Assembly: GCA_043801585.1 (NCBI GenBank) | Contig: JAZDLX010000115.1 | Coordinates: forward strand, 66,785 to 130,784 | Reading direction: 5' to 3' | Length of the DNA stretch: 64,000 bases | Source: a bacterium | GTDB lineage: Bacteria; Electryoneota; Electryoneia; Electryoneales; Electryoneaceae | Part shown: positions 8,863 to 20,886 of the stretch, piece after piece | How positions within the stretch are numbered: the first letter of the stretch is position 1 | How the letters are laid out: the number at the start of each line of letters is the position of its first letter | The notes under the pieces: generated by a model | Databases searched by the model: none | Told to the model about the DNA's origin: nothing | The model's input: the letters and a program-made list of their open reading frames with translations, nothing else | Translations under genes and position numbers: made by a program

Positions 8863-9252
8863 GTGCAGATTGATCCAAAACTGGAACGGCTGACAGCACT
8901 GATCGAACAGAAACGGGCGCAACAACATTTGGATTCAACGCCTACGGCTGTTGGTCGCTCGGGCAATCCACGTTTCGCCGATGCCTCACGCCGGGTGCAG
9001 CTCGCCCGCGAGGGGCGTTGGACTCCCAACCAAGCACAACATATTCAACAAGATAAAAAGACTGACTTAGCGCGTTTAGCGTCTCTGAGATCGGCAACTC
9101 ACATGCAGGCTCTCTCCTCGTCTCGAGCGGCACAGGAGAGTGATCTGTTGACGACGGTCCAGAGCGCGGGACACCTTTACACAGAAGGTACTCCCCGGCC
9201 ACTTTCGGCCAGTGCGCCGCACCTCGGACGCAACTTCGATACCTACGCCTGA
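8863..9252 (+). CDS. Hypothetical protein between flgC and fliE
   Basis: GTG start with GAGG SD; fills the gap in the operon; ends PHLGRNFDTYA. Confidence 0.7.
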   Translation: MQIDPKLERLTALIEQKRAQQHLDSTPTAVGRSGNPRFADASRRVQLAREGRWTPNQAQHIQQDKKTDLARLASLRSATHMQALSSSRAAQESDLLTTVQSAGHLYTEGTPRPLSASAPHLGRNFDTYA

Positions 9253-17571: not shown

Positions 17572-18342
17572 ATGGCTGAATTCCAATCCATTACAGGGTT
17601 GGTAGGCCGGCTTCCGACGACGTTCGACACCGAACCAGCACAAGGTGAGATTGACAAAAACGGTTTCCTGAAACTTCTGCTGACACAAATGCAGAATCAG
17701 GATCCGCTTTCGCCGATGGATTCGACGGATTACGCCGCGAATCTGGCACAGTTTTCCAGCCTGGAGCAGTTGCAGAACCTGAATACCTCGTTGGACCAGG
17801 GTCTTCAGGCGGATGTGCTGCTCGCACAATCAATCAATAACACGATGGCAGCAAATCTGATCGGCAAGGATGTCAAGGCCTATGGCGATTCAGTGCATCT
17901 CGCCAACGGCAACGCGAACACTGTCGCTTTTGATCTTACTTCCTTTACGGACAAAGTTGAATTTACTGTGAAGGATGCCAGCGGCAATGTCATTCGCACC
18001 GATACGCTTACCAATCTTACGGAAGGTGAACACACCTATGTGTGGGATGGTAAGGACGACCGTGGCAACAACGTCATGGATGGCACGTACACTGTCAAAG
18101 CCAACATCGTCAATGATGATGGAACGGAATCCGCTCTGGAGACCTTTATCGTTGGTCTCGTGGATGCGGTTCGTTATGAATCAACGGGTGCGATTCTTGT
18201 CGTCGATGGTCTGAACATCGGCTTCGGTGACGTTCTGGAGCTTCGCGAACCGAGCTCGACGGAAGATTCGTCAGCCAGCACTACCAGCAGCTATAAGAAC
18301 GTCTTCAATTCAATCATGTCGACACTTGGACTCAACTTGTGA
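17572..18342 (+). CDS. flgD: Flagellar hook capping protein FlgD
   Basis: FLKLLLTQMQNQDPLSPMD, LAQFSSLEQL, WDGKDDRG...DGTY Ig-like domain. Confidence 0.97.
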   Translation: MAEFQSITGLVGRLPTTFDTEPAQGEIDKNGFLKLLLTQMQNQDPLSPMDSTDYAANLAQFSSLEQLQNLNTSLDQGLQADVLLAQSINNTMAANLIGKDVKAYGDSVHLANGNANTVAFDLTSFTDKVEFTVKDASGNVIRTDTLTNLTEGEHTYVWDGKDDRGNNVMDGTYTVKANIVNDDGTESALETFIVGLVDAVRYESTGAILVVDGLNIGFGDVLELREPSSTEDSSASTTSSYKNVFNSIMSTLGLNL

Positions 18343-18350
18343 GGGATGAG

Positions 18351-18755
18351 ATGGACTGGGACACACAGCGTATTCAAGCTCAACTCGACGGTGTCGGACC
18401 TGTCCGACCCGGCGGGGGGGCTACCCGGCCCAAATCCGCCCGTGAAGCCGGCGATGAATTTCGCCTTGCTTTGGATCGTGCACGCCAGGATGGAAAAGCA
18501 CCTGATGTGACTTTTTCCGCACACGCCGCTGAACGATTGATGCAGCGTGGCATCACCCTGGATGGAAGCGATCTGAAGAAGATCAGCGACGGTCTCGATC
18601 GCGCTTCTGAAAAAGGCGCAAAGGATTCGTTGATGCTGCTCCGGGACCTGGCCCTCGTCGTCAGTGTCGAAAACAGAACGGTGGTCACGGCTCTTCAGGG
18701 CGAAAGCGCACGGGAGAGTGTCTTCACACAGATTGATAGTGCAATTCTGTTGTAG
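18351..18755 (+). CDS. TIGR02530-type flagellar operon protein of unknown function
   Basis: FSAHAAERLMQRGI, KGAKDSL, VVSVENRTVVTA, VFTQIDSA; located between flgD and flgE (alternative GTG start at 18339). Confidence 0.88.
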   Translation: MDWDTQRIQAQLDGVGPVRPGGGATRPKSAREAGDEFRLALDRARQDGKAPDVTFSAHAAERLMQRGITLDGSDLKKISDGLDRASEKGAKDSLMLLRDLALVVSVENRTVVTALQGESARESVFTQIDSAILL

Positions 18756-18780
18756 GCGTTTTTGGGACCTTTGACAACAA

Positions 18781-18918
18781 CAACCATGGTTGGGATAAGG
18801 CTGGACCTCATTGAGGAGGCCTTCGGCTTCGCCAAACGACAGAGGCGACGTCCCGGAGAAACCGGATTCCCACTATGGTAACATCCGCTGAAAAGCGGGA
18901 AGTGGGAGGAATCCTTTT
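18781..18918 (+). ncRNA. Putative structured cis-regulatory leader RNA of flgE
   Basis: Consecutive stem-loops, two with GNRA tetraloops; closing helix GGATTCCCACT/AGTGG(GAG)GAATCC covers the SD. Confidence 0.6.
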
Positions 18919-20886
18919 ATGCTTCGGTCATTGTTTAGCGGCGTGAATGGTGTTCGAAACCACCAGATCATGATGGATGTGGTTGCGAACAACATCGCAA
19001 ACGTCAACACAATCGGTTTTAAAAGTGGTCGCATCACGTTTTCAGATGCGATCAGCCAACTGTTGAAGGGGGGATCCGCTCCGCGGGATGCACGCGGTGG
19101 GTCCAACCCGGTTCAGGTGGGACTCGGCATGAAGGTGCAGTCGATCGACAACAACTTCGGTCAGGGTGGTCTTGAGCAGACCGGTTACAACACTGACCTC
19201 GCCATCGAAGGACGCGGATTCTTCGTTGTCCGCGAAGGCGACAAGCTGCTCTATACCCGTGCCGGCAACTTCACCATCGACGCCGACGGCAGACTGGTCG
19301 CCAACGGCGGCTCAACCTTCGTACAGGGCTATCAGGCTGACGCGAACGGTGAACTTTCGGACCCGACTTTGCAGGACTTGACGGTTCCGGTCCAGTTGAA
19401 GACACCAGCGAATGCGACGACTGAGGTCGTTCTTTATTCCAACCTCGATTCGGACGCGACGGAAGCGCTGGCTTCGCTGAGTGACGCTGGCGATTCGGGA
19501 GTAACCTCCGTTTCCGGTACCGCGGATGATGGTGTCGGTGGAACTCATACGATCCAAATCAGCGGTACAAACGCCACGAATTCGAACGGCATCGGAACGA
19601 GCACCTTCGGCGGCGGCGGGTCTTTGACCCTCGCCACGACACTCACGGCAGCAGGCGTGACGGATGTGGACGGATTCCAGGTGACGGTGGACCAGGGAAC
19701 GGGCGACGAAGTGACCTACACAATCCTCGGTCTCGACCTGAACAGCACTGTTGGCGAATTGATCAACCAGCTTAACGCTCAGGTAGCAGGTGCGGAATTC
19801 GTACTGACGGGCGGTGAAATCGAAGTCACTCGCCGTTATGCCGGCGATGGTACAAGTTTCAGCGTTCTGCTTACGGATACCGGCGGAACGAGTGACCTTG
19901 TCGATCAACTCTTCAACGACGGCGCCGCCGGCGTCGGTGGTACGGCAAACTTCGCTGTCGCCAACGGAACGGCTTCCTCACTGGCTGCCGTCGATACCTT
20001 CATTGACAACGCTACCGGAGCCACATCCACGAAGACGCTTGATTTCGTCGCTGATTCGTCAACGGGTTTGATGACGGAATTAACCGGTCTCGGGCGCAGT
20101 GGTGTTTCCGTCCGCGCCAACAGCGGATTTACAGCGACGGCTATCACCGGCAATGATTTGATCATCGACACCGCAGACACGAACCACTCAACCTCGATTA
20201 CCGTCTACGATGAGCAGGGAGTGACGCACAACCTAACCCTCACATTCACCAAGACGTCGCAGTTGAATGAATGGAAATGGGAGGCGAGCATCCCCGAACC
20301 GGCTCGTCTTGTCAACGGTTACTCCGGAACGGTAGAATTCAATCCGGACGGTACCCTGCGGGCGTGGAACTACGACAACAACCAGTCGAGTTTCAGCTTC
20401 GATCCAGGAACCAGCCAGGCGCTCGTGAACATCCAGTTTGACCCGGGTACGTTGGGCGGCATGGACGGCGTGACACAAACGGCTTCCAGCTTCTCAACCC
20501 AGGCGATCAGCCAGGATGGGTACAGCATGGGTGTACTCGAGGGCATTGACATCGACAACAACGGCGAGATTACCGGCAGTTTCACCAACGGTCAACAACT
20601 CCGCCTCGGCGCCATTGCAATCGCCGATTTCAACAACACGGATGGTTTGAACAAGGAAGGTGACAACCTCTGGTCAGCAACCGATTCCGCGGGCACACCG
20701 AGGTACGGCCTTGCCCAGACGAACTTTGGAAGCCTGATCGACCGTGGCTTCCTCGAAATGTCGAACGTGGACCTGGTCAAGGAGTTTACATCGATGATTA
20801 CGGCACAGCGCGGTTTCCAGGCGAGTGCGCGAGTCATCACAACGGCCGACCAGATTCTACAGGAAGTGACAAACTTGAAGCGGTAG
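18919..20886 (+). CDS. flgE: Flagellar hook protein FlgE (long form, 655 aa)
   Basis: MLRSLFSGVNG...VANNIANVNTIGFK, TDLAIEGRGFF, YTRAGNF, LEMSNVDLVKEF..MITAQRGFQASARVITT. Confidence 0.97.
   Translation: MLRSLFSGVNGVRNHQIMMDVVANNIANVNTIGFKSGRITFSDAISQLLKGGSAPRDARGGSNPVQVGLGMKVQSIDNNFGQGGLEQTGYNTDLAIEGRGFFVVREGDKLLYTRAGNFTIDADGRLVANGGSTFVQGYQADANGELSDPTLQDLTVPVQLKTPANATTEVVLYSNLDSDATEALASLSDAGDSGVTSVSGTADDGVGGTHTIQISGTNATNSNGIGTSTFGGGGSLTLATTLTAAGVTDVDGFQVTVDQGTGDEVTYTILGLDLNSTVGELINQLNAQVAGAEFVLTGGEIEVTRRYAGDGTSFSVLLTDTGGTSDLVDQLFNDGAAGVGGTANFAVANGTASSLAAVDTFIDNATGATSTKTLDFVADSSTGLMTELTGLGRSGVSVRANSGFTATAITGNDLIIDTADTNHSTSITVYDEQGVTHNLTLTFTKTSQLNEWKWEASIPEPARLVNGYSGTVEFNPDGTLRAWNYDNNQSSFSFDPGTSQALVNIQFDPGTLGGMDGVTQTASSFSTQAISQDGYSMGVLEGIDIDNNGEITGSFTNGQQLRLGAIAIADFNNTDGLNKEGDNLWSATDSAGTPRYGLAQTNFGSLIDRGFLEMSNVDLVKEFTSMITAQRGFQASARVITTADQILQEVTNLKR

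Follow-up and report, generated by a model that had tools for sequence, protein, structure and literature searches.

In this report, we describe a conserved RNA motif in the leader of the flagellar hook gene flgE and implicate the product of the gene next to it as its partner. The motif was found in a 64,000-nucleotide (nt) stretch of DNA, called the window here, from a bacterium of the family Electryoneaceae (GenBank assembly GCA_043801585.1, contig JAZDLX010000115.1, positions 66,785 to 130,784). The flagellar operon of the window reads fliK, flgD, a 134-aa gene (18351-18755), a gap of 163 nt, flgE (18919-20886, encoding 655 aa) and flbD; flgD, the 134-aa gene, flgE and the leader elements described below are on the forward (+) strand. 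The 134-aa gene belongs to TIGR02530 (97.4 bits against a cut-off of 83.2; PF12611, 36.5 against a threshold of 21.1) and lies, as the first-pass annotation of this DNA had claimed, between flgD and flgE. Two adjacent hairpins in the gap, P1 and P2, form a real and previously undescribed RNA motif that is conserved across phyla and accompanies the TIGR02530 gene with almost no exception, and we think it reasonably probable that the TIGR02530 protein recognises P1/P2 and sets hook and rod output post-transcriptionally, by cleavage or by binding.

We examined the gap that follows the gene in 30 relatives and 29 further loci of the phylum (some genomes being repeated), together with the best 80 of the 589 loci that a species-genome scan had yielded; after removal of duplicates, the P1 pattern was present in 119 of 119 loci. 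A joint P1+P2 pattern gave 117 matches, nine of which were mis-parsed and left out, so that 108 copies entered the column counts. The loci bearing the motif came, among others, from Paenibacillus, Cohnella, Sporomusa, Pelosinus, Desulforamulus and Syntrophomonadaceae, and also from Armatimonadota, Bacteroidota, Kryptoniota, Calditrichia, Geobacter and Sericytochromatia. P1 (18797-18823) has the consensus GC-Y-GGH-CC...GG-R-R-GC, with an asymmetric internal loop of GGH against purines and a variable inner stem; the triplet in this loop is GGA in 60 of the 108 copies. P2 (18825-18852) is a stem closed by GC/GC round a 12-nt loop of three NGAN units (18833-18844), a loop that had earlier been drawn with 10 nt in an otherwise correctly drawn hairpin. 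Position 3 of the loop is always A and position 10 always G in the 108 copies, and positions 2:11 are G:A in 100, A:A in five and A:C in three, these columns being partly constrained by the search pattern; the loop probably forms tandem sheared G.A pairs. P1 and P2 share the frame GC-N-G...A-N-GC. Two Solirubrobacterales loci (L128 and L139) keep P1 and lack P2, and some genomes of one family (f3; L140, L141 and L143) keep P1 with a degenerate P2 loop; these natural variants could serve for mapping contacts between protein and RNA.

The covariation in homologous leaders that the first-pass annotation had anticipated was borne out in two alignments. When 83 copies were simply aligned with MAFFT, 92.6% of the cells were paired and 10 of 13 pairs had changed on both sides. 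A covariance model built from this alignment recovered 100 of 100 held-out loci (68 of them chosen by sequence pattern), and in the model-fitted alignment of these 100 sequences 97.7% of the cells were paired and 11 of 13 pairs were compensatory, with up to six pair types per P2 position and compensatory changes in all six modelled pairs of the P2 stem. The shuffle controls for covariation ignore relatedness, but chance covariation is unlikely because the motif is spread over so many phyla. When the window was scanned with the model, one strong copy was obtained, at 18796-18852 (57 nt), which is itself a training sequence. The motif also proved new to Rfam 15, which, with the c-di-GMP riboswitches included, gave no match in the window at the gathering score and chance-level matches only at E ≤ 10; described flagellar or riboswitch families were likewise absent from 20 other loci. 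A P2-like hairpin (E 0.095) was seen at 18489-18549 within the TIGR02530 coding sequence, exactly over the codons for H-A-A-E-R-L-M-Q-R, and a strict pattern for it gave no match in other loci. P1 frequently begins less than 10 nt past the TIGR02530 stop codon, and at some loci it overlaps that codon. One clade of Bacilli whose TIGR02530 proteins are divergent (L221-L224, L229 and L230) has P1 starting inside the end of the coding sequence, so that a terminating ribosome would melt P1, and in one genus (g11; L007, L009 and L014) 180-260 extra nt, made up of short repeats rich in A and G (units such as GTCGAAA and GAGAC), lie upstream of P1.

The pairing of RNA and gene was surveyed in 79 genomes of the window's own phylum, 150 of Bacilli (the class of Cohnella), 150 of the phylum of Geobacter and 149 scored genomes of Clostridia (the class of a Caldicoprobacterales genome), and was, as the first-pass annotation required, close to perfect, joint absence from flagellated genomes included. 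In the own phylum, 65 genomes had the gene and 61 the RNA at E ≤ 0.05, every one of the latter gene-bearing (many are training sequences); the four remaining gene-bearing genomes hold weak local copies (E 0.001-0.02), and of the 14 gene-less genomes only one has flgE, with a flgD-flgE junction that lacks the motif. Among Bacilli, FlgD was found in 111 genomes, the gene in 70 and the RNA in 66; 65 of the RNA matches adjoin the gene, the 66th (E 0.046) lies within an unrelated open reading frame (ORF), and local copies (E 4e-5 to 0.029) are present in the five gene-bearing genomes that the search missed. In the 41 flagellated Bacilli genomes without the gene, flgE follows straight after flgD, with no gene remnant, and an unfiltered search at E ≤ 2 gave no match to the motif. 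Fourteen state changes were counted on a tree built from 94 FlgE N-termini, but the tree is weakly resolved and its starred branches force only two of them. In the phylum of Geobacter, 90 genomes had FlgD and six the gene, and exactly those six had the RNA at E ≤ 1.1e-5; four weak matches in gene-less genomes (E 0.013-0.047) all fall in unrelated ORFs. In Clostridia, FlgD was found in 56 genomes, the gene in 50 and the RNA at E ≤ 0.01 in 38, always adjoining the gene. Ten of the 12 misses have local matches at E ≤ 0.0073 and two score E 0.09 and 0.31, a long P1 insert being visible in one of these two copies and probable in the other, and none of six gene-less flgD-flgE junctions matched. Altogether, at least a partial copy of the motif accompanied the gene in 191 of 191 gene-bearing genomes, and the motif was found in 0 of 132 flagellated gene-less genomes by a genome-level scan, with local inspection at 48 junctions.

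All family searches gave one TIGR02530 match per genome, within the flagellar operon, and searches of 14 control genomes, among them those of the flagellated Escherichia coli, Bacillus subtilis, Caulobacter vibrioides and Thermotoga maritima, did not find the gene. In nine genomes (G104, G125, G142, G156, G170, G184, G197, G210 and G222) the best FlgD match is distant from the locus that holds TIGR02530, the motif and flgE, and in the two such loci that were read (L225 and L226) flgD was not seen alongside. Five own-phylum genomes (G004, G047, G056, G057 and G059) have weak rod-like matches in frames of 134-232 aa (loci L156, L157, L159, L165-L168, L171 and L174) and no flgE, flgF or flgG over the cut-off, which suggests either that only remnants of a flagellar system survive there or that the matches belong to another export system. 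An unannotated 75-kb 'phage' record (MT835480.1:37633-37899), which may be a host fragment, also carries a TIGR02530 homologue with 40% identity (hit H1).

Copies away from the gene show which messages the motif belongs to. A gene-blind pattern scan of metagenomes returned at least 119 stretches, 80 of them with DNA, and among these matches listed, 71 of 80 had the gene just upstream. Of the other nine, one was cut off, one had a PD-(D/E)XK gene upstream and a flgE-like start downstream, three preceded flgG-like genes and one a flagellin-like gene (labels by eye), and three followed a Ser-rich, weakly EF-hand-like gene and preceded a terminator-like hairpin. In whole genomes, a second full copy lies upstream of flgG at an unlinked locus in four of five gene-bearing genomes tested; the motif also precedes a second, unlinked flgE (L426) and each of two tandem flgE genes (L355). 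At L239 it stays with flgE where another gene lies upstream. In whole genomes, every strong unlinked copy was in a genome that holds the gene. Thus, the element belongs to hook and rod messages, which implies a diffusible partner, and adjacency alone cannot explain the pairing of RNA and gene; the term 'cis-linked', used in the first-pass annotation, was too narrow. In one gene-bearing genome (L354:1013-1066, minus strand) a full motif follows the stop codon of a gene that is Ser/Gly-rich and weakly EF-hand-like, and precedes a terminator-like hairpin; the same arrangement occurs at about 695-748 in L246, L267 and L272. No downstream gene on the same strand was seen at these copies, which are possibly decoys or a sign of a flagellum-linked gene. 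At L283:694-749, the motif precedes a flagellin-like gene that itself follows another one, and about 30 nt before it is an element, GCCGATAT, resembling the -10 box of sigma-28 promoters.

The TIGR02530 protein has features that would suit a regulator of this kind. Its AlphaFold2 model (pLDDT 87.6) contains a domain of about 90 residues (codons 18504-18752) whose predicted helix-helix-sheet fold resembles the RelE/ParE and DUF4258 folds in fold searches, with weak similarity. Across 70 sequences, S56, H58, R62, T113, T126 and D129 are invariant and R66 (99%) and K88 nearly so. H58, R62 and R66 align with the DUF4258 motif, and the first helix carries the His and nearby Arg/Lys that characterise the BECR Colicin-like group, in which DUF4258 has been placed (bioRxiv 10.64898/2026.08.28.747851, as far as its accessible text goes). 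The likeness to RelE and DUF4258 suggested by the first-pass annotation holds, if weakly, for the modelled fold and the His/Arg motif and not for the domain as a whole: no Pfam match to DUF4258 (PF14076) was obtained at E ≤ 0.1, and the profile-profile match is limited to 22 columns (64.7%). In the model, the S-x-H-x-x-x-R-x-x-x-R residues form an invariant surface on this small, RelE/BECR-like fold. Absence of covariation, a motif without the gene and the lack of an RNase- or RNA-binding-like fold had been named beforehand as computational grounds for abandoning the proposal, and none of the three was encountered.

The N-terminus of the protein may point to the flagellar export apparatus. The gate recognition motif of early export substrates has been generalised as FxxxPhi. 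In Salmonella, that of FlgD is 36-FLTLL-40, and a distance of 30 residues or more separates such motifs from a hydrophobic N-terminus (PMC8983047, accessible portions). Of 269 proteins, 23 were set aside as partial or atypical; of the 246 full-length homologues kept, 243 have FxxxPhi (and 231 FxxxL), at a median residue of 36 (interquartile range 34-38), compared with 63 in shuffles; the motif follows a P/G/A/S-rich linker in the variable N-terminus, and residues 2-12 include two or more of I/L/V/F in 237 of the 246. In the window protein, the candidate motif is FRLAL (residues 37-41; codons 18459-18473), its assignment as a gate recognition motif resting on the FxxxPhi statistics and on the Salmonella work (PMC8983047, same portions), and the same pattern occurs in the window's FliE (F34), FlgE (F41) and FlgD (F32), the last encoded by the hook cap gene at 17572-18342 (Pfam FlgD, FlgD_ig and FLgD_tudor). 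By sequence, then, the TIGR02530 protein has both marks of an early, rod/hook-type substrate, a hydrophobic N-terminus and a gate recognition motif, and because of this likeness it may dock at or pass through the export gate. One further flagellar-operon gene of the window is uncharacterised, a 129-aa ORF between flgC and fliE (8863-9252) without a Pfam match at E ≤ 0.1.

These observations suggest a mechanism in which P1+P2 would be a protein-recognition site in the mRNA leader of hook genes and, in some lineages, of distal-rod genes, with the TIGR02530 protein as its dedicated partner acting in trans. The protein would bind P1 and P2, perhaps as two sub-sites with a common frame, after which the polycistronic mRNA might be cut at the site, for which the chances are about even, or binding alone might act. 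In longer leaders, such as that of the window, binding or cutting would shift the balance between the two folds described below; in compact leaders, P2 abuts the ribosome site. Spacers of up to about 100 nt and the 3' copies would favour processing, stabilisation or a decoy role over simple steric blocking. More speculatively, the N-terminal FxxxL would dock the protein at the export gate, or send it through, in the rod/hook phase and so tie the synthesis of many-copy subunits to export activity. Recognition of P1/P2 by the TIGR02530 protein is the part of this scheme that we favour; the complete version, in which the protein would be both an RNA regulator domesticated from the RelE/BECR fold, binding or cutting the flgE and flgG leaders, and a rod/hook export substrate whose passage to the gate couples synthesis to assembly, is offered as a tentative possibility.

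The first-pass annotation had placed control elsewhere, in a cis-linked switch by which the protein would open or close a three-way junction that sequesters the Shine-Dalgarno (SD) sequence of flgE (18904-18910). The sequence strings that it quoted are all where it had put them, and the 163-nt gap is indeed more stable than its shuffles (z = -3.05; 2/200). In the full leader, P1 has pair probabilities of 0.92-0.95, P2 is part of the minimum free energy (MFE) structure, and the hairpin CCGG-AGAAA-CCGG (P3, 18853-18865) reaches 0.98-1.0; P3 is a variable, family-level element, similar hairpins being seen by eye in several same-family loci. CAACC-AT-GGTTG, drawn with a 2-nt loop, falls to about 0 in context, and so does the three-way junction (18864-18914), whose five outer closing pairs reach 0.70-0.99 only in the fragment 18853-18940, without the upstream strand, and whose AUG-GUAA-CAU arm reaches at most 0.6. 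The MFE structure has instead a helix missed earlier, P0 (18783-18795 with 18868-18879), which encloses P1, P2 and P3 and uses the same strand as the SD helix, so that the two are mutually exclusive; P0 has the lower energy, by 10 kcal/mol for the whole leader and by 5.5 when the first 18 nt are left off. In a same-genus genome the margins are 5.4 and 2.7 kcal/mol, and several P0 pairs have changed yet are kept. This genus is thus predicted to have two exclusive folds with the SD paired in both, opening of the SD costing about 5-6 kcal/mol in the P0 form; the burial foreseen for it is thus predicted for the source genome too, with partners other than the junction helix. A small local hairpin at 18903-18921 also pairs the SD with bases just before the start codon, and several same-family loci are alike.

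The shared strand, with 3-10 kcal/mol between the two folds in this genus, and the covariation of a P0-like helix in one family (f5; own partner best in 6/8 loci) speak for such a switch. The same helix is weak in the window's own family (3/14) and was not seen elsewhere (2/55 loci), however, and by eye only the same-genus genome shows a three-way junction among 30 loci, the junction being absent from leaders as short as 70 nt. Anti-SD pairing in 55 loci, mostly Bacillota, was no better with the own partner than with others (-7.2 versus -7.2), the P2 loop stands anywhere from 18 to 106 nt from the start codon, and the opening energy of the ribosome-binding site (RBS) was the same in 65 motif-positive as in 47 motif-negative Bacillota loci (5.9 versus 5.6 kcal/mol, p = 0.47). 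A conserved anti-SD helix with a competing structure, which would define an SD-sequestering switch, is therefore confined to this genus; RBS sequestration is best regarded as a local elaboration, and as the general mechanism it is improbable. We also judge it rather unlikely that the RNA serves as an aptamer or as the target of a different factor (a small ligand, CsrA, FlbD/SwrD or a housekeeping RNase) and the TIGR02530 protein a hitch-hiking, exported accessory: highly conserved loops are typical of riboswitches too, the N-terminus is of the export type of FlgD and FliE, and adjacency could explain joint loss, but an independent element should at times outlive the gene, as it did in none of the 132 flagellated gene-less genomes. 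Neither CsrA nor FlbD fits as the partner: both were present in five of five motif-negative genomes and CsrA was not found in four of five motif-positive ones, including the source genome (92% complete) and a single-contig genome. A role as a 3' element of the upstream message, stabilising or autoregulating the TIGR02530 transcript or serving as a decoy, would agree with the closeness of P1 to the stop codon and with the copies 3' of the Ser-rich gene; it is very improbable, given the copies that stay with flgE under another upstream gene, with tandem or unlinked flgE genes and with flgG. The TIGR02530 protein is strongly implicated as the orphan partner of a motif that works like a protein-dependent mRNA operator and is a member of no described family.

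Several known systems resemble parts of this proposal. CsrA-FliW controls flagellin leaders (B. subtilis hag and Campylobacter jejuni flaA) and similarly places a protein on the structured 5' leader of a many-copy flagellar subunit; in contrast, the target here is hook or rod, there is no array of GGA hairpin loops, the partner is BECR-like, and CsrA does not track the motif. A CsrA-controlled leader was rejected: besides the distribution of CsrA, GGA lies in an internal loop and occurs in no more than 60 of the 108 copies. The ribosomal-protein leaders of the S15, L20 and S8 types are autoregulatory; they too are compact, covarying, cross-phylum leaders with a reader from the same operon and a variable expression platform, whereas here the regulated gene does not itself encode the proposed partner, and no Rfam family matches the RNA. 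RegB of phage T4 is a precedent for a RelE-fold mRNA regulator. The TIGR02530 protein appears, at weak similarity, to share with RelE/ParE, DUF4258 and RegB the predicted helix-helix-sheet, the N-terminal F-x-H-A-x-x-R-x-x-x-R-x-I motif and the first-helix His and Arg, but differs from the BECR/RelE RNases in its single flagellar-operon copy, with no antitoxin partner seen, and its export-like N-terminus, a nuclease role being putative. FlgM and Yersinia LcrQ/YscM are secreted checkpoint regulators, of which FlgM has a sigma factor as its target once the hook is complete; any regulator that bears an export signal could likewise report export activity by leaving the cytoplasm, although the target here would be mRNA structure in the rod/hook phase and export is suggested by a sequence motif alone. 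Termite-flg (RF01729) and flg-Rhizobiales (RF01736) are candidate cis-regulatory RNAs before flagellar genes, described from termite gut and Rhizobiales only (PMC2864571, accessible portions); they share this position with our motif and gave no match at E ≤ 10 in the window region or at E ≤ 5 in 20 other loci. In the literature we found no description of the motif or of the gene's function; the supplements of PMC11109978 and PMC5737381 could hold the motif, and 'flgE' has no occurrence in the available main text of PMC11109978 and PMC6429828.

Our results thus provide a candidate function for a widespread flagellar gene, Flagellar_put, that is still listed as 'function unknown' in Table 2 of a 2026 survey (PMC13277936, accessible portions), and they add a cross-phylum RNA motif absent from Rfam. 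That the gene was not found in E. coli, B. subtilis, C. vibrioides and T. maritima may be why it was overlooked. A flagellum holds about 120 copies of FlgE and 26 of FlgG and only 5 of FlgD, and dedicated post-transcriptional control of hook and distal-rod subunits, whose required copy numbers far exceed those of their operon neighbours, would explain the unequal output of one long operon; the RNA-protein pair may therefore be an overlooked control on the amount of hook built. If the export-coupled reading is true, this control would be FlgM-like logic exerted on mRNA, one stage earlier, common to lineages on both sides of the deep split among bacteria but lost from the principal model organisms.
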